Below are positions 30,651-46,117 of a stretch of 64,000 nucleotides of DNA, in pieces. Source of the stretch: an uncultured Rivularia sp. GTDB taxonomy: Bacteria > Cyanobacteriota > Cyanobacteriia > Cyanobacteriales > Nostocaceae. The DNA is taken from NCBI GenBank assembly GCA_963665115.1, contig OY762007.1, positions 928,001-992,000 on the forward strand, read 5' to 3'. How positions within the stretch are numbered: the first letter of the stretch is position 1; the number at the start of each line of letters is the position of its first letter. Made by a program: the position numbers and the translations under genes. The notes beneath the pieces were generated by a model that was not told the DNA's origin, searched no databases, and saw only the letters and a program-made list of their open reading frames with translations.

Positions 30651-31256
30651 TCAATTACTAGGAATGGGTGGAAGAATCTCTTCCTGTGCGGGATTATTAT
30701 TTACAGTAGTCGGAGTATTCCGTATCAAATCGGCATCGTAAAAGTAAACGCGACTGCAATATTGAGTCGGACTAGAACAAGTTGCTTCAATCGCAACATT
30801 ACTCACATTGTTTACATCAACCGATACATTTGCCACTCTTGTAGGGCCAATAGTAATAGTTTCAGTTGGTCTTCCGTCCAAGAAAAGTTTAACCTGGACA
30901 CTGGGACTATTTACATTATTGTCGCGCATTCCAAAGCCCAAATTCAAAGTTTGAAATAGATCTTGAGCGCGATCGTCATCTGGTTGAATGTTACAAGTTA
31001 AAGCAGCCGAACGATAACCAGGGCCTAAATAAAATTTACTATTGTAAACCGCTCTACCAATAGAAACATTACGCTTCTCCCTGCGAGCGCTACCGATTCC
31101 GCTTTTAACACACTTGCCTTTCAACAAAGAAGTTGGACGTATTTTTTCTTGCTTTTGAGCAGTTGCTTCACCCAAAGGAAAAAGAGCGGGTAATATTACT
31201 GCAATTGGTAGAACAACCGAACTAATTAATTTCTTTTTTAGCATTGACATTGTCAT
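30651..31256 (-). CDS. Secreted protein, NPCBM/NEW2-like carbohydrate-binding fold
   Basis: Signal peptide ending ATA-Q; beta-rich VKLFLDG...VSVDVNNV. Confidence 0.6.
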   Translation of the reverse strand: MTMSMLKKKLISSVVLPIAVILPALFPLGEATAQKQEKIRPTSLLKGKCVKSGIGSARREKRNVSIGRAVYNSKFYLGPGYRSAALTCNIQPDDDRAQDLFQTLNLGFGMRDNNVNSPSVQVKLFLDGRPTETITIGPTRVANVSVDVNNVSNVAIEATCSSPTQYCSRVYFYDADLIRNTPTTVNNNPAQEEILPPIPSN

Positions 31257-31596
31257 TAATAAATTTCATTCACATTTATGTGAGGCTCATCAAACAATTA
31301 TTTCGGTCAAAATAATGATACCTAATCGTTCCGAATTTTTTTGTATTACAAAATTAGAGATTGGGCATTGGGGATTGGGGATTGGGCATTGGTAATTGGG
31401 GATTGGTAATTGGGCATTGGTAATTGAGGATTGAGATATAAACCTAGATAATAATTCTCCCTCGCTGTGCGATAGTATACCAAATCAAAATTAATTTTAG
31501 TTTTTATCCCCCCTCTTCCCCATCCCCAAAACAAAAAAAAGAGGCACGGAAACCCGCACCCCTATAGTTGTTAAGGAAGACTATTTTTGAATGAAA

Positions 31597-34500
31597 TTAA
31601 TCAACTCTGACGCGGAAGCGAACAAATCCAAATTGTCCACCAGCAGGTAAAGTACCCAAATTGGTAAGTACCGCACCATCTGCTGGGGTACCATTGGTAC
31701 AAATATTTTGGAAATTCGCGGGTATTGGAGCTAAAGGTGAGGAGAAATTACCGTTATCTGCACCGTTACCTGCTCCATTTACGACAATGCTACCGTTTAC
31801 AAAGGTTGTACCGTCGGGAATCAAGTCACAAACTCTAACATTTTGCAATTCTTCTCCACCTTCGCTTAAGAAGTAGATGGTGTATTCTACGATGTCACCA
31901 CTTACTACGGGTGTTTCTAAGCGAGTAATACCTACTGGTGAAGATTGTGGCGATCGATTGAATACATTATCATCTTCATCGTTGGAATCATCTTCAAACT
32001 GATTGAAAGCAACACCGCTAATAGGTGTATTTCCTCTCAATACGTTGGTAATCCGCTTCACTAAACGTAAGTTTACGGGTCCGGATGGTCCCAAACGACC
32101 GGGACGGAAACCAAAATCAACTTCGTTTGTGCTGGGATTTTCTTCGGTTAGCTGAGCCGATAATGTGGTTTCGGTGGTTGGGCTGAAGTCGGTAGGGTCT
32201 GGCAGCTTCTACGGTGTAGTTAGCCAATGGTAAACCGTTAAAGACATAGTTACCGTTATCGTTGGTGGTTGTGGTGGCAACTGTATTACCGTCGGAATCT
32301 CTTAAAGTTAATTGAACTCCAGGAATTCCTTCTTCACCTTCTTCGTTTGGTTCTTTAATACCGTTGTTATTACTATCGGTAAAGTCCTGTACTCCATTAC
32401 CGTTCGTATCGTTGAATACGGTATCGCCGATAGAACCTGGTAATCCAGTCATTCTCACCCCAAAATCAGCATCAACAAAATTTTGATTGGGTTGTAGAGT
32501 TACCGGAATCGGATTGACACCTGTGGTCAGAATACTACCGTCGGGAAGCACCATTTGTACTTGATAATTTCCTGGTGGAAGATTGTTAAAGGTATATTGA
32601 CCTGGGGTATTTTGATTAAAAGCGACTGTATCGGTGTTATCGGTGCGCTGTTCATCTATTTGGTCGTCAGAAGTACCAAAAACACCATCTTCTCCAGGAT
32701 TAATTAATCTAACTACAACACCGCTAACCCCTGGTTCTCCTTCATCTTGGATGCGGTTAGCATTTACGTCAGCAAATACAGTATCGCCAATTGAACCGTT
32801 TAGTGGTGGTTGGAAACCAAAGTCAACTGTATCAATATTTTGACCGGCTTCTAAGTTAACTGGGTTGGTTTGCGTCAGCGTTGGATTCAAACCTTGAGGA
32901 GGATTCTCAATTGTGACGGTGTAAGTACCCGGTGCTACATTAAAAAAGTTGTAGATTCCATTATCGTCCGTAGTGGTTCTAGCAACTTCGTTTCCGTTAG
33001 TATCTCGCAGAATTAAAGTAATTCCGGGGATGCCGATTTCGTTTCCGTTGGGAATACTATCACCGTTGTTGTCGTAGAAAACGAAATCTCCGATTGTCCC
33101 AACTTGTTGTGGAGAGAAACCGAAGTCAGCAGTATCGAAGTTTTCATCTGCTTGTAATGAAATATTACTAGGTGGTGTTTGAGTTGGAGTTAAACCGTCG
33201 GGAGGATTATTAACAACAACTTGGTAGTTACCTGTAGGGACGTTGGGGAAACCGTAAATACCATTTTCGTTGGTAGTTGTGGTTTGAGTCGTATCGTCGG
33301 GAGTACCAAATTGACCGTCGGGACCTGGATTAATTAAGGTAACTTCAACGTTAGGAATTCCTGGTTCACCTTCATTTTGAGTCCCGTCGCTGTTGTTATC
33401 TCGGTAAACGGTATCGCCAATTGTACCCGTCGCTTGAGTATAGCCAAAATCAGCAGTATCAATATTTTCACCTTCACCCAATGCGATCGGGTTGTTCGGA
33501 GTCTGGGTTTGACTCAATCCCTGAATTGGTTGTTGATTTTGGTCGTTAATAGTAACTCGGTAAGTTCCCGCAGGTAAGTTGGGAAAGGTGTATCTACCGT
33601 TTGCATCGGTTTGAGTTCTACCACTGATATCGTCATCAGTTAGACTTTCACCAAACACACCGTCTGGACCCGTTCCCGCATAGTTGACAATTACACCAGC
33701 TATTCCGGGTTCGTTCTGATCTTGTTGACCGTTACCATTCACATCGTTATAAACGGTATCACCAAGAGAACCCGTTTCTTGTTGCTGTCCTGCAAAACCG
33801 AAGTCAATCGTATCAATATTTTGACCGCCTTGCAGATTAATAATATCCGGTTGGGTTTGAGTCGGAGTTAAACCTTCGGGAGTTTCAGTGCTAACTGTGT
33901 AATTCGCTGGAGGTAAATTGGTAAATCCGTATACACCACTATTGTCGGTAGTTGTGGTTTGAGTTGTATCGTCAGGAGTACCCAACTGACCATCAGGACC
34001 AGGACCCGTTAATGTTACCGTGACTCCAGGAATACCAGTTTCACCTGGATCTTGAGTGTTATTACTATTGGTATCGTTGTAAACCGTATCTCCTAAAGAA
34101 CCCGTTCCTGCTTCTTCCGGTGCAAAACCGAAATCAACGTCATTATTGGTTTGATTTTCTGCTAAATCAACTGTTTCTGGTGGGGTTTGTGTTGGAGTTA
34201 AACCATCTGGTGTGGTGGTAGTAACTCGATAATTACCCGGTGTTAAATTAGGGAAGCTGTAATTACCGTTTTCGTTTGTAGTTGTGGTAGTGGTGGTGTC
34301 GTCTGGAGTTCCAAATTCACCATCATCACCGGGATTTGTTAAAGTAACTGTCGCTCCAGGAATACCAGTTTCACCTGGATCTTGAGTGTTATTGCGGTTG
34401 GTATCGTTGTAAACCGTATCCCCGATACTACCTTGTCCTTGTCCTACTGGTTCCGGTACAAAACCAAAGTCAGCATCTTCAAAATTTTGACCTGGCTGTA

Positions 34501-35919
34501 ATTCAACTGGGTTCGTTTGGGTTTGAGTGGCAGTATCTCCTTCTCTGGGACTGGTTGCAGTAACTGTGTAATTACCCGCAGGAAGATTGGGAAATGTGTA
34601 AATACCTTGGTCGTTGGTAGTTGTAGTTTGAGTAGTATCGTCACCAGTACCTAATTGCCCGTCGGGACCTGGAAGAACTAATGTAACTGTAGCTCCAGGA
34701 ATACCTTCTTCTCCGTCATCCTGGACGTTATTTCTATTTCCATCTGTATAAACGGTATCGCCGATACTACCCGTTTGCGGTGGCGAGAAACCAAAATCAG
34801 CAGTATCAAAATTCTCACCTGCTGCCACAACAATGGTTTGTGGAGGCGTTTGAGTCGGATTTAAACCTTCTGGGGGATTACTAACGGTAACTCGATAATT
34901 ACCCGCAGGCACCGGGAAGTTGTATATTCCATTATTATCAGTAGTAGTAGTTTCCGTGGTGTCGTCGGGAGTCCCAAATTGACCGTCGGGGCCTGGATTT
35001 GTCAAAACTAAATTTATTCCACCAATTCCCTCTTCACCAGGATTTTGAGTACCATCACCATTAGTATCTCGATAAACCGTATCGCCAATTGAAGCTGCAT
35101 TTGCGGGCGCACAGATAGTAAATGGAGCTAAACCGATAGTTTGGTCTTGTCCCCCGGTGAACCGAATTGGGTTCCCGGTTGGTAAACAATACGGATTTGG
35201 TCAACAGCACCACCCGGTGTTACGGAAACATTACCATCTCCATTCTCAGGAAATGAGTTTTCGGTGATACCGAAAGCTGTATTCCCGGAAGCTTGAGTAA
35301 ATGGTCCAAGCGCTTGAAGGTTAACAGGAACGTTGGCATTATTATTAGCTGCGCTGACTGTAACTCTATCTTGGAAAACTCGACGATTATCTCGCGCACC
35401 ATTACGGTCAACATCTAACAAAGTTAAAGGTGATGCCAAGCTAACTGGCTGAGCAAAGGTAATCGTAATTGTTGCGCTACCAGGTGGAAAATTACCCGTT
35501 TCTGGAGGTTTTCCCGGACCAATATTTAAACGTAGATTTGGTCCTTGAAGCCCACCATAAACACCACCATCAAATCTCGATTCGGTTCTATCGATTACTT
35601 GACCGGGGATTTCTTCAGTCAAACTAAAGACGGTACGAATTCCGCCAACATTATACTCTTGTGTTAAATCTTGCAGGCTATCGCTAGCGTTGAACTGTAT
35701 TCTTTCTGGTGCAGTACCCGCAGGACAACTTGCCGCATTTTGCGCCATAGCCTTTCCACCCCCGATTATTGGTACTTGGGGTACGCTCAACAACACCGCT
35801 AATACAGTCGTAGACACAAAAGGAGTAGAGATTTTTTTTGCCGAGTACGAAGTATTATTTGCCACCGAACCCGGCTCCCCTTGAGTAATTGCCGATAAAT
35901 GCTTAAATAAAGCTTTCAT
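31597..35919 (-). CDS. Large secreted adhesin (about 1440 aa): N-terminal domain, nine SdrD B-like repeats, truncated C-terminal DUF11 domain; split by two homopolymer indels
   Basis: ORFs 35128..35982, 32117..35005 and 31597..32094 join after correcting C5 at 35151-35155 and G3 at 32195-32197; nine (I/L)GD(T/F)V(Y/F)xD...(D)FG repeats. Confidence 0.8.
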
Positions 35920-36079
35920 TTTTTGCTTCCTAAACAACCAAAAATATTGGGCATTGGGCATTGGGCATTGGGCATTGGGCATTGGGGATGGGAGACAAGG
36001 AGAATTTCTAAGTATTAACTCTTAACTCCTAACTCCTCACTCTTAACCTTCAATCCAAAATCCAAAATCCAAAATGCTT

Positions 36080-38458
36080 TTACCTTCTTCCTTCAATTTG
36101 TAAATCTTGCTCTTGGTCAATGATTTCGAGGTCTATACCCCTGATATCCTTGAAGATGATTTCAGTACGCCTATCCCGTGCGTAATCTACAATGTCTGTA
36201 CTTCCAGGTACCTTAAGTTGGCTTTCACCAAAGGAGCGTATGGTCATTCTTTCAGGTGCAATTCCCGAACGCAACAGATAATTTCTTGTAGACAAGGCTC
36301 GTCGTTTACCCAATGCTTGGTTATAAGCATCGCTAGCTCTGGGGTCTGTATGACCTTGCAGTTCGATGACGATAAAAGGATATTGTTTGAGAACTTCTGC
36401 TACTTTGTCGAGTACTTCGGCACTTTCGTCGCTAATGAAAGATTTATCTAAAGCAAAGTGGATGTTGCGCGGTACTTGAATCTGAATTGGTTCTGGTGGG
36501 GTAACTGGTGGCGTTGGTGGTGGTGCTGGCGGTGTTGGTGGCGGTGGTGGTGTTGGTCTGGAAACGCACTGAGGAGGATTAATAGGCTCAATTCTCGGTG
36601 TAACGTTGACGTTAGGTGGAGTCTCAACCGTACCAATCTTTGTAGCTATCGCCGGTTCTGAAGTTCCGTATTTTGGGTCGGTGGCGATCGCACTAATCAT
36701 GTCCCCTGGCTGCACGTTTTCGACTTGGGCAGTAAATTCGCCGTCTTCACCCGCGCTAACTATAGTCAATGGTTCTGTTAAAGCACCATATCCAGGTTGG
36801 TATATAGCTTCTAGTCCCCGCTGATAGTCGCTCAATTTATAAATTGCAACTTCGCTTCCTTTATCGGCTTTCCCCGTAATAGTGGCGCTGCTGCCGTTAG
36901 GTGCAAAAGCTTTTTCGCTAAATCGCGGAGCGTTAATTGCACCGTTTCCAGTTTCTTTGCGTCGGTTCCCAGAGTTACGTTTGGGATTGGGGCCATCTCC
37001 GCGCTGAAAGTCAATTACTCCCAGGTTTCTCTGGCTATTAAGATCGATACTCAATCCTTCTAAAGCAGCAAATTTATTGTTGCGGATGTCGTTACGTATT
37101 GCTACGCCTCTTTTACCAACATCGTTTCTAGGAAATGCCGTAACTACGACTCCTGGCCCGGCTTGATGGTCAATTTCGTTACCAATGACTTGATGCTCGC
37201 TACCCATAACAAATACAGCCGCTCGCCGGAGTCTTCTGCCGTTATAGGTAATCTTATTATTCTGTACTAATACCTTGCCTTGAGGTTTAAATAAATACAC
37301 GCCTGCGCCGTCGTTGGCACAGATTAAGTTACCCAAAATCTGGGAATTATCAACGACACCTTCAAAGCGCAAGGCATCGGGCATTCCGTCGATCCCGTTA
37401 CCAACGATAATATTTTGCACAACCTGAGTATTTTCCGCTCGTACCGAAGTAATAATTGCACTTCCGGCATGATAAGAAATTCGGTTGTTGCGAATTGTCG
37501 CTCCTTTACTGTTGAAGGCATAAATACCAAAAGCGGAAAGACGATCGGGTACTCTTTCATCTTGAGTTATTCCCAACCAGTTATTTTCAATAACAATATT
37601 TTTCGGGGGTACGTCTCGTTCCCGAAACGGAAAGTTTCTTGCAGGGGGTTTTTGCTGACTAATATCGGGAGGAGGTAAGCGGTGAGCAATTACAATATCC
37701 CCCGGTGGAGTTGTCAGAGTTGCGGGTTCGGGTTTACCGTCGTAAATCAACGCGCTTCCCAACTGTTGCTTGATGGGTTCGGCATTGAAACCGTACATAT
37801 TTAAGCCGCGAATGGTGATATCATCCGCAACTACCGTCAAACCGCGAAATACCTCTTGTCCGGTTGCCGGTTTAATTGTCACCAAGGGAATCGGAATGGC
37901 TATTTCCGCCGTTGCCGAAGTGTTGGCATCGTATCCCGGTTGAGTACTTCCATCAATAGTTAACCCCGGTGCAGCCAAATCGGGCAACACTGTTTGCAGT
38001 TCGATAGTTGTCGCCGCTTGCGGTAAATTAAACTCAATACTGCTTCCCCCTGTTGTCGCGGGAGAAACTTGAGCTTGTTCCGCACTGCTGAGTTGTTGGG
38101 GGGTTAGAGTACCGTTGACAACTTCAATCGCTTCGCGCAAAGTTAATTGAGCATCAGCCGTTACCGCACCATCTTCATTGCTATTTACTACCACCCTTAC
38201 CGCAGGGGCTGAGGGAGTAGTTGGGGTAGAAAATTCCTGCTCTTGTGCGAATACCGCAGTGGGTGAGACCAACCCTGTGCGGAGGTTCCCTCCGTTGAAG
38301 GGATTGGCGAACCCGAAGGGAAGAAATAATATCGAAGTGGGGAAAACGTAAAATATTTTTTTATTCGGTAAAAGCGAACGGATCGTAGGTAAAAGCGAAA
38401 AATTCACCTTTAGCCTTATTACTTTAACCGTATTACTCTTTGACCTTTTCTTGGGCAT
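36080..38458 (-). CDS. Right-handed beta-helix protein with Pro linker and C-terminal OmpA-like peptidoglycan-binding domain
   Basis: LTLREAI motif, IxNNxI repeats, poly-Pro linker, IHFALDKS...GHTD...YNQALGKRRA...RRTE. Confidence 0.88.
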   Translation of the reverse strand: MPKKRSKSNTVKVIRLKVNFSLLPTIRSLLPNKKIFYVFPTSILFLPFGFANPFNGGNLRTGLVSPTAVFAQEQEFSTPTTPSAPAVRVVVNSNEDGAVTADAQLTLREAIEVVNGTLTPQQLSSAEQAQVSPATTGGSSIEFNLPQAATTIELQTVLPDLAAPGLTIDGSTQPGYDANTSATAEIAIPIPLVTIKPATGQEVFRGLTVVADDITIRGLNMYGFNAEPIKQQLGSALIYDGKPEPATLTTPPGDIVIAHRLPPPDISQQKPPARNFPFRERDVPPKNIVIENNWLGITQDERVPDRLSAFGIYAFNSKGATIRNNRISYHAGSAIITSVRAENTQVVQNIIVGNGIDGMPDALRFEGVVDNSQILGNLICANDGAGVYLFKPQGKVLVQNNKITYNGRRLRRAAVFVMGSEHQVIGNEIDHQAGPGVVVTAFPRNDVGKRGVAIRNDIRNNKFAALEGLSIDLNSQRNLGVIDFQRGDGPNPKRNSGNRRKETGNGAINAPRFSEKAFAPNGSSATITGKADKGSEVAIYKLSDYQRGLEAIYQPGYGALTEPLTIVSAGEDGEFTAQVENVQPGDMISAIATDPKYGTSEPAIATKIGTVETPPNVNVTPRIEPINPPQCVSRPTPPPPPTPPAPPPTPPVTPPEPIQIQVPRNIHFALDKSFISDESAEVLDKVAEVLKQYPFIVIELQGHTDPRASDAYNQALGKRRALSTRNYLLRSGIAPERMTIRSFGESQLKVPGSTDIVDYARDRRTEIIFKDIRGIDLEIIDQEQDLQIEGRR

Positions 38459-38500
38459 TGCTCGCTCCTATGACACCACATTTGACCAATATTTCAACAG

Positions 38501-41500
38501 CTAGTTTTTCAGATTGTTAATCAGCTTGGTTTGAGAAGCTTTATTTTGAGGAACTCGGGATTGAGTATTGTTGATAGAGGAATTTTCTCTTCCCTGCTCC
38601 CCATTCCCCGTTCCCTGTTCCCTCTTCAAACGATTAACCAATTTGCTTTTGCTTTGTGAATTCTTCTTCAAACGTTCGGTTAACTCCGACGGTTTCTGAG
38701 ATTGTTGTTGAGAACCGTTTCTTACCAAAGGTGATTCCGATTCTTGTTCTTGTTTTGGAACTGTTTTCTGCAATCCAAATCCGCCGAACAATTCGTTAAG
38801 TTTCAAGCTGACATTTAGGTATAATCCACCTTCCGAGCGATATCCGGTAAAGTCGCGGTCGTCTACGCTACCAAAGGCATAACCGACTCCCAAACGCAAA
38901 TCTGGAGTTAAGTAATATCCACCTTCTACCGCAATTCCAAATTCGTCAAAGTCAGAATTATTGTTGGAATCTTGACCAATCCAGCGTCCTTCTACTGCTA
39001 AATCGGTACGGTAGCCCAATTTATAGCTGGCTCTAGCTTGTGCTAAATTCACCGTTCCATCGTAGCGATCGCCATCGAAATAAGTTACACCGTTACGCAG
39101 CGCGTATTTACCGAAAAATTCCCATCGCCACGAAGGTGCATAAATACCTTCTGCTGAAAATACGTGTCCTGTCGCTGTAGAACTTCCCGTAAACTGGTTT
39201 TCGGGTATGGAGTCAAAGTTTTGTCGCCATTCGTATTTGAGCAAGCCGTTAAATTTATCGTTGGTTGGATCGCGATAAGCTAAACCAACTTTAAAATTAG
39301 CGGTGTCTCCCAATTCTTCAAATCTCACCCCTTGATCTGCACCAAAGTTATTTACCGAGGAAGGTAAAAACACGTTGGCTTCACCCGCTTGTTGGAAGCG
39401 TGCCAATGCTGTTAATGCAGGAGAAATCTTACCTGCCGCACCAACGGATATAAAGGTCGTGTCACCTTCGTCACCATCGCGGAATTCAAAGCGACCGCTA
39501 GCTTTAAAGTCTGGATTATCGGTATAATCCAAGCCGACGCTGTACACAGAACCGGCAAATAATCCCAGGGAAGATGCCGTTTGTCCGACTGCGTAATATT
39601 GCGGTATTCTATCTCCGGCAGCAGTCGAATTAAAGATGTTTCTGAATACGTATTGATAACCCAGGCTCATCCGCAATCCTGGAGCAATGGGCATTCCGTG
39701 ATTGACTCCTAATGCACCTTGTCCTTGCAAGCCGTTGAAGCCCGATAGTACCGAATAACGTCCGTTAAAAGTAGTATCTTTGGCTAGGTTGTAGTCAACT
39801 AAAGTATCTAAAGTAGTTAAGGAATTACCTTCTAGCAAGCTGGTATCGTCGTACCATTGATGCGCCAGTCTAAAGGTGACTCCCTCGAATGCTTGCCAAT
39901 CCAATCCTAAAGTAGTTCTGTTGGGATAAAGCGGATCGGAACCGTCAATGTTAACTTCATTCTGCGCTTGGAAAGTTAAAGATTGAGTCAGAGGAACTTT
40001 CAACCGCGAAACAATTTGCTCTGCATCGCCATTCAATTCATCGTTTGCTCTATCTTCCCGCGAACGGTTGACATACTCGACGCTAGCATCTGCAAAGCCA
40101 AACTTTTGTAAAATCCCCGCTCGGAAAGTCTTTAGTTCGTTATCTAAAGCTTCCCCAGGACGCGCTTGCGGTTGGGGATCGAATAGATCGAAGAAGTTTA
40201 CTAAACCCGTACTAGCTCGACCGAAGTTTTCTTCCACATCGTAGGATACACCCAAAGTTGTGGTATCGGTTAACTTGCCCAACAAACCAGCACCGTAACG
40301 GGTTTGTCCGGGAGAAAAGCTGAATGTAGCGTTGTTATTAAAATTCTCCTCAACCGAACGGTAATAAGCATTTAAGTTTACGCGGTCGTTTAAATTACCA
40401 ATCGCTTCGATACGGTAAGCGTTTCCGGTTAGGTCTTCACCACCGCCAATATTGCTTTCCGACCTCGCATATTCACCGAGAATCTTACCAAAACGACCGA
40501 AGGACAACAGAAAATCCGCTCCATACAGTTCAAAATCTCGATCTCCTTGGTCTTCTCTCAAATAAGAACCGGCGATAAAAGATTTACTGTCAAAATTCTG
40601 AGAGATATTAAACTGTGCCCTTGCAGCATAAATATCCGATTCTTCACCAAACTCCGGCTGATAGGTAACAACAACTTGTCTTTGCAGAGTTGCCCCAAAA
40701 GGATTAAGTTCTGTTGCCAAGATTGGACTTAAGAGTCTAATCGTGCCTCGGTCGTAATCTATTTCATAATCTCGACCGCGATATAGTTCCTGTCTCTTGA
40801 CAATAGTACCGGGACGGTTAATTTCTTCAGCTTCTAAATAAACGCTTTCACTTCCGGGAACCAACAACCGTTGTGATAAAAAGTAATTACCGCTAATACC
40901 TTGAGGAGTAAAAGTATCTCGTTGGAAACCTTCGACGTTATTGGCATATAAACCAGTTATCTGCAAAGGTCCTAAACTGTAATTACCTTTGAAACCATGC
41001 AGTTGACGAGCAGTTCCACCATAAAGTTGAGAAGGTCGAGAAAATTCCTCAGTTCTGTAATCTCCCCACATTACATAATCGGGGTCTGCACCTGGTATTT
41101 TAGAACTGCGTTCAAAACGAGCATAAAAACTATCCGTAGAAGGTGTTGTCGGAGTCACCGTGGAACTATCGCCATACACGGGATAGTTTTGTTCGCAAAA
41201 CTGAATCCCGCCAAATAAACGGTTTCTACCTTCGCAATCTTGGTTAATTGGTCGCTCGCTGTTGAAAGCACCAGTAAACAACCATTCCCCAACTTTACCA
41301 GTCGCAAACACCTGAGAATCTAAATCGACCTCGGTTCCATCACCCGCATCTGGATCGAGGAATTCTCTACGACTACCCCAGAAATTGGTGCCTCTAGCAC
41401 CGATACGAAGATTGACGATACCCGTAACTAAGGAAGGACGCAAGTAGGTGGTGAATTCTACTTGTGTATAGGCTTCTAATGGTTGACTAACAAGTTCGTT

Positions 41501-42520
41501 ATTAAATAGTCTGGTATCTCTACCGCTCTCTAACAGGATTTCTCCATCAATTGCTCTCTCCCTCTGTCTTAGGGTAGATGCAGGCTTTTTAATTTTATGG
41601 ACTGCAGCCCGGATGCGAACGGGTTGAGGTTTCAATCCTGACTGCAAAGTTGCAATAAATTCTCCATTGATCGCACGTGCCTGGAATCCGGGGGCATCCT
41701 TATCTTGGTCGGAACCAATAAACTTACCCGCACTGCTTGTCAGAGTTACTAACACATCGCGAGGAATTACTTCCCCTTCCGGGTTGATAATCTGTCCTCG
41801 GATTTGAATCGTCGAACGTCCATCAGCCTGTACCACTGGGTCGCCTACAGGGGTAATTTCAAGCTGTATCTTGCTACTACTTCTTTGTCTTGAGGCAGGA
41901 GTCGAATTCTCTTGGAAGGGATTAAGAGGCTCTCCTTGAGTTTGCCGATCTTGGGGAACTTGCCGTTGTGGCTGAATAGGCAGTACCTCTTTTTGCGGCT
42001 GTTGGATCTGCCGCTGTGGTTGCTGCTGTCGCTCAAATAAAGACCCCCCTCGTTGGTCAAACAAAGAGTCTGAGCCAGGTGTTGTTGGAGTTGGAGAAAC
42101 GGGACTGTCTCCGATTTCCGCCAGTTTGAGTAACTGCCGTAGAGGTGGCGAAATCTTAGAAGACTCCGATCTTGAAGAAGGTTTAGGCTTTTGACTTTTG
42201 CCCTCTTTTCCTGTGTCAACGCTTAAAGAAGTCTTGGAGGGTAAAGAAGTTTTATGATCTTGACCTTTAACCTCTTTTGCTGTATTCTTACCCTTTTTTA
42301 ATCTAGAACCTATAGATAATTGAGCCTTTTTATCTGAGGATGCAGCTGCTTGAGCACTAGAGCAAATCGTAGAAAAGCCTAAAATTGCTATAACTAACGG
42401 CACAATACCTGCACTACCCAGCTTCAATAGGGCAGGTAACATGGTATGGAAAAATTGCTTTTGGTTACGATAATCGTTGTTGCCAGTGGAGAATCGCACG
42501 CGAGATTGTTTCTTATTCAT
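38501..42520 (-). CDS. Very large predicted outer-membrane beta-barrel protein with a preceding Ig-like domain
   Basis: Signal peptide (AQA-A), low-complexity linker, ADGRSTIQIRGQI Ig-like start, long region of alternating amphipathic strands rich in Y/F/G. Confidence 0.7.
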   Translation of the reverse strand: MNKKQSRVRFSTGNNDYRNQKQFFHTMLPALLKLGSAGIVPLVIAILGFSTICSSAQAAASSDKKAQLSIGSRLKKGKNTAKEVKGQDHKTSLPSKTSLSVDTGKEGKSQKPKPSSRSESSKISPPLRQLLKLAEIGDSPVSPTPTTPGSDSLFDQRGGSLFERQQQPQRQIQQPQKEVLPIQPQRQVPQDRQTQGEPLNPFQENSTPASRQRSSSKIQLEITPVGDPVVQADGRSTIQIRGQIINPEGEVIPRDVLVTLTSSAGKFIGSDQDKDAPGFQARAINGEFIATLQSGLKPQPVRIRAAVHKIKKPASTLRQRERAIDGEILLESGRDTRLFNNELVSQPLEAYTQVEFTTYLRPSLVTGIVNLRIGARGTNFWGSRREFLDPDAGDGTEVDLDSQVFATGKVGEWLFTGAFNSERPINQDCEGRNRLFGGIQFCEQNYPVYGDSSTVTPTTPSTDSFYARFERSSKIPGADPDYVMWGDYRTEEFSRPSQLYGGTARQLHGFKGNYSLGPLQITGLYANNVEGFQRDTFTPQGISGNYFLSQRLLVPGSESVYLEAEEINRPGTIVKRQELYRGRDYEIDYDRGTIRLLSPILATELNPFGATLQRQVVVTYQPEFGEESDIYAARAQFNISQNFDSKSFIAGSYLREDQGDRDFELYGADFLLSFGRFGKILGEYARSESNIGGGEDLTGNAYRIEAIGNLNDRVNLNAYYRSVEENFNNNATFSFSPGQTRYGAGLLGKLTDTTTLGVSYDVEENFGRASTGLVNFFDLFDPQPQARPGEALDNELKTFRAGILQKFGFADASVEYVNRSREDRANDELNGDAEQIVSRLKVPLTQSLTFQAQNEVNIDGSDPLYPNRTTLGLDWQAFEGVTFRLAHQWYDDTSLLEGNSLTTLDTLVDYNLAKDTTFNGRYSVLSGFNGLQGQGALGVNHGMPIAPGLRMSLGYQYVFRNIFNSTAAGDRIPQYYAVGQTASSLGLFAGSVYSVGLDYTDNPDFKASGRFEFRDGDEGDTTFISVGAAGKISPALTALARFQQAGEANVFLPSSVNNFGADQGVRFEELGDTANFKVGLAYRDPTNDKFNGLLKYEWRQNFDSIPENQFTGSSTATGHVFSAEGIYAPSWRWEFFGKYALRNGVTYFDGDRYDGTVNLAQARASYKLGYRTDLAVEGRWIGQDSNNNSDFDEFGIAVEGGYYLTPDLRLGVGYAFGSVDDRDFTGYRSEGGLYLNVSLKLNELFGGFGLQKTVPKQEQESESPLVRNGSQQQSQKPSELTERLKKNSQSKSKLVNRLKREQGTGNGEQGRENSSINNTQSRVPQNKASQTKLINNLKN

Positions 42521-43452
42521 TTCTTACCCTCCGAAAACGCAGGTGTAACGCCAAAATTCACCCGCACCATACTTCCAGGCGCTAATTTCACTAAACGTGA
42601 TGGGCTATTTGTCTCAATAAAGTATTTATTCGGAGCCAAGGAGTAGCCTGGTAAACTAGTTAAATCCAATGCCGCAGAACGATATCCAGAGATAACATTC
42701 GCTAAAGAATACAAACCATTTGCATCCGTGACAATGCGGTTCCCATCATCCATGTAAACTACCGCATTCGGTACTCCAGGTTCGTTTGGCTGCTGTTCGC
42801 CGTCAAAGTTTTTATCGACAAATACCCGTCCAATCAAAGTACCGCAGTCAGACAAAATTCCTTGTCTAATCCGCAATCTATGACTCGATTGGTTACTCCG
42901 TAAACCCCCAGCTGTTGCTTGAGCTAAGTTTCTTCCGGTGCCACGTATAGAATCTGGAGTCACTTCAGCAGCATAGTTAACAACCATGCTTTGTCCCGGT
43001 TGCAGAGTAGCAGTCGAACTTGCAGTAACATTTGTTCCTCGACTAGAAGCATTGATACTTGGAGTGCCAAAATCTACTTCTGTATCACCAATAGAACCTC
43101 TCAACGATTCAGTTACTAATCGCAGACCTAAAGGCAACCTATCGGTAATACTCACGTTCGTAGCTGGAGATTGACCAACATTTTCAATCAACAATCGATA
43201 GATAACCGTATCCCCAGGTTCGGCAGCAGCGCGATCGCCAGTTTTTGTTAATCGCAAATCTGCCGGAGAAGCACTAAGAGTTACTTCGTTAGAATCAACT
43301 CTTTCGTCAGGTAAATTATCTGCACCGCCGGAGGCAGTATTGTTAATCACTGTTTGGGCAACAGTCGGTATAATTCCGTAAGCAATAACACTTAAGGAAC
43401 TAATTGTTAAAAAGAGGCTTTTACGCCTTAGCCATGAAATTAAAAATGTCAT
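42517..43452 (-). CDS. Secreted DUF11 plus SdrD B-like domain protein
   Basis: Signal peptide; LRLTKTGDRAAAEPGDTVIYRL...ITDRLPLG; GRVFVDKNFDGEQQPNEPGV; ATGA overlap with the next gene. Confidence 0.85.
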   Translation of the reverse strand: MTFLISWLRRKSLFLTISSLSVIAYGIIPTVAQTVINNTASGGADNLPDERVDSNEVTLSASPADLRLTKTGDRAAAEPGDTVIYRLLIENVGQSPATNVSITDRLPLGLRLVTESLRGSIGDTEVDFGTPSINASSRGTNVTASSTATLQPGQSMVVNYAAEVTPDSIRGTGRNLAQATAGGLRSNQSSHRLRIRQGILSDCGTLIGRVFVDKNFDGEQQPNEPGVPNAVVYMDDGNRIVTDANGLYSLANVISGYRSAALDLTSLPGYSLAPNKYFIETNSPSRLVKLAPGSMVRVNFGVTPAFSEGKK

Positions 43453-44846
43453 TGGAAGGCATCAATGCAATAAATAGCGGTCATTTTTCTCTCTGTATAG
43501 GCTTTAACTAAAAAACCTATTTTTTCTAATCATGAAATTATTAACCAGTAGCAAAGAATAGTATCACTAAACTTCACCAGCGTTATACGTAGTATCGAGG
43601 AAAATTTTATTTTTCATTTTTCCTACTATGCAAAATGTATATTTTTTTGCAATCAGAGCATATTATTAACTGCTTGTCAAGAATTAAACCAGGTGTATAC
43701 AGTTATCAATTCCTGTATCAAATAAACAAGCATGAGTAGGAATTTTCATTTTTTGAGATAATTTGAGGTCAATTCATCATCTCTATCCCCAACTTCAACT
43801 AAAACTGGTAAGACAAATATTTCCACACAATAGTTGCGTGAAAAATATTTTGACTGCCATTATTGCTTCGTTTATTCAAGCAAATGCACGCTATCAAGAG
43901 TAAATCTGGATTGTTGTCTTTCAGGGATATTGCACTCGTAAATAGTGAACTAAAGCCGATTACCTGACACCTGTACAATTGCAGCTATTTTTTGACCCTA
44001 AATACAACGTGTAACTTTTTTATTAAAGGAATTTCCTCTAAATTTTTGTTATTTGAAATGACTTTAATTTTGTCTGTCTGCGGTAACAACTACCATCAGC
44101 CAAGGAAAATAATATACGCCGTTTCCTCTTGAATATTAAGTAAAAGATATTCACGATCATCTCCATAACCTTCACACCACTAACATTTCTTTTGCTTAAG
44201 GTTGAGTATCCCACGTATGGGTTATTTTTGAGTCAGTAATTACGTTCAGAAAATAATTAAAAATTTCCACGTTAATTATTTATTAGCGTGTTACCAAACT
44301 TTTAAACACCTGACGCAATATATATTCAAAAACTGAACTGCACAACCGATATTGTAATTCTGAGAACCTTTATTTAGTCATTAATTATATTCAAGGTTCT
44401 CATCTACTCATTATTTAAGAACTGCCCTACAGACTATATGTTTCCAATTTACAATCTAGTGGACTACCTAAAACCTGTCTTTGCCGAATCTTTATCTAAT
44501 GGTCACACTTAAGTAATATTACTCAGATTTTTGGCTTAAGCAATCAGGGATTTCCTAATTTATACTGTATTTTTTATGTCAAAGATGATTTAAGTGCTAT
44601 CACTTAAGGTGTAAATACTCTGATTAAAAAAAATTTGTATCATTTAACTTCAAATTAAAGTATGTAATGATTTTTTTGTCTGCAACAACTAATCAAATTA
44701 AAAAAAAATCATAAATTATCCTGAAACAGGAATATGCAAGTTGAATAAGTAATAGACTGTAGGCAATTAGTAAAAATGTAATTAGTTACTATTGACCTTT
44801 TAGAAAGCGCTTCTTCTTTGATCTAGCCACACACTAGCTTGACAAT

Positions 44847-44868
44847 AAATGTGATATAAATCACATTC
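44847..44868. promoter_or_regulatory. CRP-family binding site TGTGA-N6-TCACA
   Basis: AAATGTGATATAAATCACATTC matches the consensus AAATGTGATCTAGATCACATTT at 19 of 22 positions. Confidence 0.7.
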
Positions 44869-45475
44869 TTGCGAAACTGCTTGTTGCCTATTATTTGCAA
44901 GCACGCCCGTTAAAAATAAATATTTTTATACTAAGTTTGCATGAGAATACTTAAGGATAAGTGTAATTATATTTATAGACAGTTCATAAAGTGTCTACTA
45001 TAATTATAAACTTTTGTGTATTTTTTGCTTCTTTTTGGCCGCGATGACTGAAGACAATACAAAGTTGAGCGATTTATTAATCAAGAAAAATATTTAACTT
45101 TTAGTTGTACATTCTTGTTTGAGAAGCTTCTCAAAGAGGCGGTATTGATGATTTTTCTATGTTTGTCGAAAAATACTGAAGAAAATTTAGTTGTGACTAC
45201 CTTTGGTAGAGCTTAGTCTAACGACTCACTGCGTGAACGCTTAACGCCGCTTAAACTATATCCATTAAATGTAGTTGCTTTTTTAGTCACTGTTCTTTAA
45301 TGCAGGCAATGGAAAATTTTGGCATTGCTCCGAGTAAATATATATAAAGTGATAGTCCCTCAAGAGTATTGAGGGAACTTCAAAGCTAATAGTTAGCAAC
45401 AATCTATATAATTTTCAATCCGAACCTGCGCTGTCATCGCTACAGATGCAGCGCTACTGGTCTCATTTTTAATTT

Positions 45476-46117
45476 TTAATAAGTATCGTCGTATTCAGGC
45501 GCTTCCATGCGTCTTTCCGAACGAGGAGGTAAAAACTCAGCGCGACGTACTGGAGGAGATATCGTATTGCTCGAACCATTATAAGGATGAATTACCTGTA
45601 CTGTTCGAGTCGGGCGTTGTTTTTGAGAAAACAAAGCGGAAACTCCAGCGACTACAATACCACCGCCAACTGTAAGAGCCATTCCCCCTACAGCCCAAAG
45701 TATGCCCGAAGACCACCAAGGTTCTTGAGGCTGTTGCAATGCAGCTTGTTGCGCCGAACTTTGATTTTGCTGGGCGCTCAATTGCGACTGGTAGTAGCTT
45801 TGTACTTGAGACTGAAATTGTTGATTTTGATTTTTTAACTGGTCATTTTCCCGTTGCAGGACATCGAGTTGGCTTTTTTGACGTTCCAACTGCGTCCGCA
45901 ACTCGATCGAATCGGGATTTGGAGGAAATTGATTGGGGTAAGTTGGTACGCCAGGATAAGCACCCGGTTGAGCCATATACGGTTGTGCAACTACGGGAGA
46001 TTGCACTTGCGGAGCATTAAAAGTTGCTGGGAGGGAATTACCAGATCCTTTCAACAATAAAAGAGCCGCCAGTCCAGCTACTGCAACTCCACCGATAAAT
46101 GCCATACTTTCACTCAT
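45476..46117 (-). CDS. patN: Heterocyst patterning membrane protein, PatN-like
   Basis: N-terminal hydrophobic segment, Gln-rich coiled coil, C-terminal TM; downstream of ndhL-DUF3007 as recalled for Anabaena. Confidence 0.7.
   Translation of the reverse strand: MSESMAFIGGVAVAGLAALLLLKGSGNSLPATFNAPQVQSPVVAQPYMAQPGAYPGVPTYPNQFPPNPDSIELRTQLERQKSQLDVLQRENDQLKNQNQQFQSQVQSYYQSQLSAQQNQSSAQQAALQQPQEPWWSSGILWAVGGMALTVGGGIVVAGVSALFSQKQRPTRTVQVIHPYNGSSNTISPPVRRAEFLPPRSERRMEAPEYDDTY

Follow-up and report, generated by a model that had tools for sequence, protein, structure and literature searches.

The DUF11 domain has been renamed CLIPPER, and in a solved member, the fibrillar adhesin B9T28_05395 of Acinetobacter silvestris (Protein Data Bank (PDB) entry 9IFR), an isopeptide bond connects Lys715 with Asn806 while Asp748 lies nearby (PMC12617251). 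That adhesin belongs to a diderm bacterium, has an OmpA-like anchor and forms its bond within one chain. In the locus described here, a domain of this CnaA-like fold, with Lys, Asp and Asn at corresponding positions, is instead cut between two genes, before the strand that carries the Asn. The locus lies in a stretch of 64,000 nucleotides from an uncultured Rivularia sp. (contig OY762007.1, positions 928,001 to 992,000, forward strand), which is called the window and whose own numbering is used below. Four co-oriented genes on its minus strand encode a small DUF11 protein (the anchor), a predicted barrel, a beta-helix/OmpA protein and an adhesin with SdrD_B repeats; their parts given below are all on that strand. 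The last domain of the adhesin ends without the final two CLIPPER strands, and it is highly probable that a hairpin at the N-terminus of the anchor would supply them. There is a good, though lesser, likelihood that this pairing is followed by a spontaneous covalent lock that hangs the adhesin on the barrel. The role names anchor, catcher, tag, shaft and helper were coined in the present analysis.

The truncated adhesin domain and the orphan hairpin

The truncated CLIPPER acceptor, or catcher, at the C-terminus of the adhesin (31597..32076) was recognized from TIGR01451, 9IFR and complex prediction. Its motifs follow in the order LRLVK, GDIVEYTI, NVRVCDLIPDG and GFVRFRVRVD, and are succeeded by the stop. 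This stop is real, since a terminator-like hairpin with a T run lies 3' of it (31540..31563, minus strand; one found versus 0.4 expected in shuffles), every other frame is devoid of an N-x-A...S-N continuation, and the contigs of sequencing runs X1 to X3 agree with the window, from which they differ in no letter over 31500-34053. The frame check, the X-run contigs and the position of the terminator also rule out a missing hairpin concealed by a frameshift. Four residues of the domain, Lys7 (codon 32056-32058), Cys83, Asp84 (codon 31825-31827) and Cys126, are invariant in 33/33 adhesin C-terminal domains, and the two Cys residues likely form a disulfide. These 33 domains were chosen by their C-terminal motif, so their alignment is no test of the truncation; the frames of relatives and the ends of the cargo genes at anchor loci were used for that purpose instead. 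The acceptor scores above the cut-off of TIGR01451 (40.9 bits against 24) and below that of PF01345 (21.9 bits against 24.6), the latter as would be expected of a truncated copy.

Indels near 35151 and 32195 divide the adhesin, in the assembly, into three open reading frames (ORFs; 35128-35982, 32117-35005 and 31597-32094). The contigs of runs X2, X3 and X4 have the extra bases at neither site, while the X1 contig retains the break at 32195 and has only one base fewer at 35151. Seven of nine close relatives have a single open frame into the truncated domain (at its 5' end, one of these runs beyond the sequence retrieved), and two are broken. Both frameshifts are most likely assembly errors, the real gene being one ORF of about 1,440 codons (31597..35919) that starts with the ATG at 35919; a real pseudogene is ruled out by the open frames in the relatives together with the X-run contigs. 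The upstream ATG at 35982 is a false one that comes from short tandem 7-nt repeats (CCCAATG-type and similar, dispersed genome-wide) at 35946-36070, between the OmpA and adhesin genes. From domain scans and the relatives, the adhesin would consist of a signal peptide, a head, about ten SdrD_B repeats and the truncated CLIPPER domain. An atlas search with the head gave no confident name.

The anchor is a protein of 311 residues (42517-43452) that begins with a probable Sec signal peptide (residues 1-32, 43357..43452), with the order basic, hydrophobic and TVA/Q as read from the sequence and its homologues. The orphan donor hairpin, or tag, follows directly (residues 33-60, 43273..43356; QTVINNTAS...VDSNEVTLS), and contains Asn38 (codon 43339-43341) and a second conserved Asn55 (codon 43288-43290). 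In an alignment of 80 anchors, namely that of the window and those of 79 of 80 further loci, Asn38 and Asn55 are each found in 80/80 and Ala40 in 79/80, and the flanking residues are variable; the one locus omitted, L018, was left out because it is frameshifted, and its fragment carries the tag. Next comes a complete DUF11/CLIPPER domain (residues 66-196, 42865..43257; Pfam, TIGR01451 and 9IFR), which reaches 51.3 bits with PF01345 (cut-off 24.6) and 54.2 bits with TIGR01451, and whose own Lys70, Asp104 and Asn175 are invariant in 80/80. Lys, Asp and Asn are therefore together in one polypeptide in the domain of the anchor itself, and not in that of the adhesin, which ends before the Asn strand. 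The most conserved part of the anchor, with many invariant columns, is its SdrD_B-like C-terminal domain (residues 203-311, 42517..42846; PF17210, E 1e-5, below the cut-off), which is likely the barrel-binding end; it is fused ahead of the barrel in an Acinetobacter locus (L102). When the anchor sequence was searched against solved structures, only chance matches resulted.

Both the anchor and the acceptor have the CnaA-like fold of 9IFR, in accordance with their TIGR01451/PF01345 assignment. The model of the anchor domain covers the whole 9IFR chain, 18-140, with 121/123 residues aligned (Z 14.7, root-mean-square deviation (rmsd) 2.4, rank 1). The adhesin domain covers only 21-109 of 18-140, with 88 residues aligned (Z 6.8, which is middling by itself; rmsd 2.0, rank 14), a match that came from the wide VIA search; Foldseek with the acceptor model gave no match at E <= 0.001. 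In this register (708 numbered 20), Lys7 falls on Lys715 and the last residue of the acceptor on 797, about nine residues before Asn806. Asn806 is in the next strand, in a hydrophobic-x-N-x-V/A context by a by-eye reading of the Table S6 gene (PMC12617251). Because the register stops before the Asn806 strand, it is the last two strands that are missing from the adhesin, and the matching Asn is Asn38. As modelled, the element that is missing on one side and donated on the other is a two-strand hairpin, and its reactive residue is likely Asn38, not Asn55. The latter is disfavoured, since, of the two missing strands, it is the first that carries Asn806 in CLIPPER, and the second Asn is absent from some type-B anchors. 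It is worth adding that PDB 7WRK (TTHA1873, a hypothetical protein of Thermus thermophilus) matches the anchor CLIPPER domain at Z 14.6, comparable to 9IFR, and is possibly an unrecognized CLIPPER-like structure.

An initial annotation of this DNA, made from the sequence alone, had described the adhesin domain as ending without the N-x-A...S-N element that the small DUF11 protein carries as an orphan N-terminus. The motifs it quoted are found where it placed them, including residues 33-60 at 43273-43356. Its account is borne out by the real stop and the end of the 9IFR match before the Asn strand, on the side of the adhesin, and by the invariance of Asn38 and Asn55 on the side of the small protein.

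The acceptor (159 residues) and anchor residues 33-197 were also folded together. The interface score ipSAE (interaction prediction score from aligned errors) was 0.84, 0.83 and 0.85, versus 0.00 for the best of three controls; the runs share at least 95% of their contacts, with a partner pLDDT (predicted local distance difference test) of at least 89. The ipSAE mark is reached by 116/157 solved complexes and 2/215 mismatched pairs, rates that are only rough with the alignments made here. On the anchor side, the interface consists of mature-chain residues 1-2, 4-16 and 18-32, plus 62-66 and 149-153, the tag being its main part. The first donor strand pairs with acceptor residues 80-84, where Asp84 contacts Ala40/Ser41, and the second with residues 5-9, where Lys7 contacts Ser54, Asn55 and Val57; the last two CLIPPER strands would be expected to lie in just this way. 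The hairpin docks in the acceptor although the anchor's own complete domain was present in the model. In the model of the anchor monomer, the tag residues have a pLDDT of 52-60 versus about 88 for the complete domain.

Distribution, natural fusions and longer operons

A search with the acceptor profile found 9,848 representatives at E <= 0.001. Among the best 150 of these, 56/56 full-profile matches are C-terminal, at most three residues from the end, and stand behind very different heads. The initial annotation had suggested a survey of genomes for truncated domains that occur together with orphan strands. With about 10 kb downstream of each anchor covered, the cargo end is visible at 41/53 anchor loci, and the cargo stops at the same strand in 41/41. 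The remaining loci either run off the flank (11) or have no cargo frame (1). In 121 cyanobacterial genomes, the acceptor is present in 18 and the barrel in 19, with an overlap of all 18. In the sole exception, G125, neither acceptor nor anchor genes lie near the barrel; this lone barrel gene (L134:8629-12561), with an N-terminus like a long-type anchor body and no cargo genes nearby, is a candidate remnant or fused minimal form.

The barrel protein has 1339 residues (38501..42520) and combines an Ig-like N-terminal part with a predicted large outer-membrane beta-barrel, as judged by its atlas neighbours, which are named outer membrane proteins (score 0.97), and by a crude count of about 27 amphipathic strands in residues 630-1250. 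No family above cut-off was found for it in Pfam/NCBIfam scans. The start of its gene and the anchor stop overlap by 4 nt, and the barrel directly follows the anchor in 74/74 loci with enough flank. The next gene (36080..38458) encodes a beta-helix and OmpA-like peptidoglycan-binding protein (PF00691, 58.9 bits; PF13229, 43.6 bits). It is present in 59/80 anchor loci and absent from several related operons, and the protein is accessory.

Nature has also joined these parts in several ways, and in a number of proteobacteria the adhesin and the anchor form a single chain. Nitratireductor and Sinorhizobium have one giant DUF11 adhesin whose C-terminal end matches the anchor profile from 14 to 283, with the N-x-A...S-N hairpin in cis before the last domain and a barrel homologue adjoining. 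The adhesins of Sulfitobacter and Vibrio match the anchor profile from 37 and 24, respectively, and the two-gene plan of fused adhesin and barrel is common to Sulfitobacter, Vibrio and Eleftheria. Acinetobacter has a fusion of anchor and barrel that begins with a tag. Two cyanobacterial proteins, P0336 (source label Pseudanabaena frigida) and P0320, join a cargo head to an anchor body and have neither tag nor catcher; their heads are 51-53% identical to a cargo of the window's genome. Each of these fusions deletes one junction of the proposed chain, either cargo to anchor or anchor to barrel.

The operon of the window is one of three in its genome, and it is of the smaller kind. Among 24 cyanobacterial stretches there are a minimal type, as in the window, and a longer type, which has two additional genes. 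One of these encodes a shaft of 820-990 residues with a tag at its N-terminus and a truncated domain at its C-terminus, in which the Asn is kept in 13/13 and the Lys in 13/13. The other encodes a small protein of 150-200 residues, the helper, which is a lone truncated domain with only a weak DUF11 match. None of 15 helper copies keeps both the Lys and the acid; most have Gln for Asp, and two keep the Asp without the Lys. In the cargo acceptors, by comparison, the Asp is kept in 27/27 rows (one protein is counted twice) and the Lys in all 26 rows in which that strand is aligned. Of the indirect signs that the chemistry is genuine, the best is this reciprocal loss of catalytic residues by the helper; the small truncated copy is likely a chaperone. 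Helper copies without the acid are found also in Thermus, Deinococcus, Novosphingobium and in 11 displayed of 17 metagenome loci, and the full grammar of tip, shaft, base, helper and barrel extends to Thermus thermophilus HB8, Deinococcus ficus, Acinetobacter, Novosphingobium and Synechococcus NIES-970. Five genomes that have the minimal operon only gave no shaft or small-protein match with these queries, both of which match in the positive control, G000, the genome of the window; this fits a direct joining of tip on base, and a helper that is required solely where one protein has both halves.

The paralogous full-length operon in G000 (C1:365667-399285; L132, L133) has a shaft, a disarmed helper, an anchor, a barrel, an OmpA protein and about six cargo genes, and its broken frames are probably assembly errors. 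Three of the cargo-like genes (381952-384675, 384850-389148 and 389348-391992) carry a shaft-type N-terminal tag as well as a C-terminal acceptor, so the adhesins themselves may chain. The third operon (G000:C1:3276567-3283938) is of the minimal type without an OmpA gene, and its anchor is frameshifted in the assembly. Two strains of Thermus thermophilus offer a natural pair: HB8 (L153) has all five genes on pTT27 (TTH_RS10905-10925), whereas the operon on pTT27 of HB27 (L157, 11965-18958) is reduced to the barrel and the 3' portion of the anchor, flanked by a RecQ gene and by CRISPR genes.

Several neighbours of the window's operon also deserve mention. About 2 kb upstream of the anchor there is a gene for a Gln-rich membrane protein of 213 residues (45476-46117, minus strand), with no family above cut-off and a homologue in 36/80 anchor loci. 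The interval between them, 43453-45475, is about 2 kb without a same-strand ORF of more than 65 codons, and may contain a long regulatory leader. Directly past the terminator lies a gene for an exported protein of 201 residues (30651-31256, minus strand), for which the Pfam scan found no family; its position is kept in Rivularia relatives, and it occurs in 8/80 loci.

Proposed assembly and its rivals

We propose that all parts are exported by Sec, after which the adhesin and the anchor would join and an isopeptide bond would form between Lys7 and Asn38, catalysed by Asp84 and with release of ammonia. Such a bond may reasonably be expected from CLIPPER chemistry (PMC12617251). The C-terminal domain of the anchor would bind the barrel, with the cargo either passing through the barrel or being displayed on it, and the OmpA protein would tether the complex to peptidoglycan. 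In the minimal operon, the cargo would join the anchor directly, as a tip on a base. In the longer operons, shaft subunits would polymerize between tip and base by virtue of their two halves, while the disarmed acceptor would shield the hairpins until assembly. We lean, with some reserve, toward the broader view that this is a widespread, undescribed class of pilus or adhesin display in two-membrane bacteria (Cyanobacteria, Deinococcota, Alpha- and Gammaproteobacteria). In this class, a split CLIPPER domain would serve as an enzyme-free covalent plug, tip, shaft and base would be welded at a giant barrel, the disarmed catcher would act as a reverse chaperone, and cargo heads would be swapped freely, the window having the minimal tip-on-base form.

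A number of observations weigh against a covalent lock, or against the pairing as such. The complex prediction supports docking only: Lys7-Asn38 is outside the 25 most confident contacts, the best contacts of Lys7 are with the second strand (Ser54/Asn55/Val57), and the output consists of contacts, without side-chain geometry. The pair also rebuilds a solved fold, so its passing score may stem from likeness to solved complete domains. Some DUF11 domains have no bond (PMC12617251), and the Asp position of the shaft is Glu in 12/13, with one ambiguous. The tag pattern was missed in 25/120 longer-type anchors, about a fifth, many of them N-x-V variants, and the second Asn is absent from some longer-type anchors. 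The counted genomes, moreover, are related and not independent, which makes the co-occurrence a pattern and not a statistic. The first and third of these points, together with the oligomers of BsaA N35A from Clostridium perfringens, which survive cold sodium dodecyl sulfate (SDS) without a bond (10.1101/2024.11.04.621531), favour a hairpin that completes the acceptor in a non-covalent joint, as in chaperone-usher pili, with Lys, Asp and Asn kept for packing or hydrogen bonding. We regard such a joint as unlikely, however, since acceptors keep the buried Lys and Asp without exception and the small copy has lost them reciprocally, and the solved homologue, CLIPPER, does form the bond.

Other readings do away with a lasting joint altogether. 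The truncated C-terminal domain could be an export signal, for which the anchor hairpin is a brief receptor before the cargo is released; very different cargo heads do share this domain and its end motif, and some operons have several cargo genes per anchor (L109-L111; C1:380-399 kb). Yet shafts carry both halves, cargo and anchor are permanently one chain in the fusions, and catalytic residues would be superfluous in a signal, all of which leaves this explanation with only a slim chance. We give even less credence to the notion that the two features are unrelated, the C-terminal domain being a stable short Ig variant and the anchor N-terminus packing on its own domains or on the barrel. The tag has little order in the model of the anchor monomer and yet docks in the complex with a score of 0.84, the hairpin is in cis in the fused forms, and both halves are lost together in P0320/P0336. 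What this notion has on its side is the confident model of the acceptor alone (pLDDT 89.6), which may be stable without a partner, and the weak likeness of the tag to the last hairpin of the anchor's own domain: the hhalign score is 14.3, with a maximum of 11.95 in 100 column shuffles and 14.65 for an unrelated window.

Hairpin pairing followed by a covalent lock thus stays our preferred explanation, and it is close to what the initial annotation had put forward, namely that the small protein donates a strand to the adhesin, possibly with a Lys-Asn bond between the two. That idea is very probably right in its architecture and probably right in its chemistry. Donation is favoured by the docked complex (ipSAE 0.84), the fold match, the conservation and the fusions, although the donated element has two strands where one had been envisaged. 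As to the convergence of Lys, Asp and Asn in the complex, Lys7 and Asp84 were found at the interface, and Lys7-Asn38 not among the 25 listed contacts. As to the results that the annotation had named as speaking against it, the peptide docks in the prediction, the truncation and the N-terminal motif proved to be conserved, and the acceptor alone was modelled with confidence. It had left the reactive Asn unspecified (likely Asn38) and had noted only the minimal form of a larger system.

Comparison with known systems

Our literature search, which covers few subscription papers and could have missed an unseen report, found neither a split CLIPPER pair nor this operon described; the text of PMC12617251 has 0 matches for 'donor strand' and for 'cyanobacteria'. 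In the parts at hand of other reports, Litorilinea GhlA and F-Anchor-3 have complete DUF11 repeats and isopeptide bonds are unmentioned (PMC12357932; 10.1101/2025.08.19.671072), and the DUF11 matches in the tafi paper (PMC11821415) turned out to be DUF1102. If the proposal is true, it would provide a sortase-free route for covalent fibres or cargo display across the outer membrane, at a barrel for which the scanned libraries gave no secretion-family match, and would assign a function to hypothetical genes that number in the hundreds in cyanobacteria forming mats and biofilms. Protein engineering would also gain natural tag/catcher pairs that are possibly heat-stable and mutually orthogonal. 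In SpyTag/SpyCatcher, a self-ligating domain has been divided into a catcher and a short tag; that pair and the RrgA Jo-In pair (PDB 5MKC, found by structure search) are laboratory-made, whereas the pair described here would be a natural one, conserved also in thermophiles.

Covalently linked pili are textbook knowledge for Gram-positive bacteria with sortases. The adhesin of the window ends in RFRVRVD and the anchor in FSEGKK, without an LPXTG, hydrophobic and basic tail (the genome was not searched for sortases), and the sorting domain of the type IX secretion system (T9SS), TIGR04183, was matched only internally, at 17.5 bits and under the cut-off of 23. The thread protein Saci_0406 of Sulfolobus acidocaldarius is alike in its donor-strand complementation and apparent intermolecular isopeptide bonds; however, it is archaeal, links an N-terminal amine to an Asn of subunit n+2, and has an unrelated fold and no outer membrane (PMC9715654). 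BsaA, of the TasA family, is alike in having an N-terminal donor with the Asn and an acceptor with the Lys and a catalytic acid, and its intermolecular 'exchange and lock' is supported by mutants (10.1101/2024.11.04.621531). It differs in its TasA fold, single donated strand, Glu catalyst, SipW processing and Gram-positive homopolymer, with no barrel, interchangeable cargo or grammar of tip, shaft and base. The scan of 8 ORFs found no TasA-family domain or SipW-type peptidase, and no SipW search was made in the remainder of the genome.

The chaperone-usher pili (FimH-FimA-FimI, FimC and FimD; PMC13721041) come close in their plan, with an acceptor-only tip, a donor-plus-acceptor shaft, a donor-only base, a barrel and a dedicated helper. 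Donor-strand complementation between subunits is predicted here as well, with a two-strand hairpin, and the proposed system would act like such a pilus with a lock of the BsaA type. The usher family (FimD/PapC) was not found in the 1339-residue protein in Pfam or NCBIfam scans at E <= 0.1, and the 8 ORFs scanned contain no PapD-type chaperone or fimbrial pilin domains. The chaperone-usher joint is non-covalent and made with a single donor strand in a pilin Ig fold, at a 24-strand usher and with a chaperone that itself donates a strand. The system of the window, in contrast, uses a hairpin, is likely covalent, and would rely in its longer forms on a disarmed acceptor that caps the donor, which is the reverse logic.

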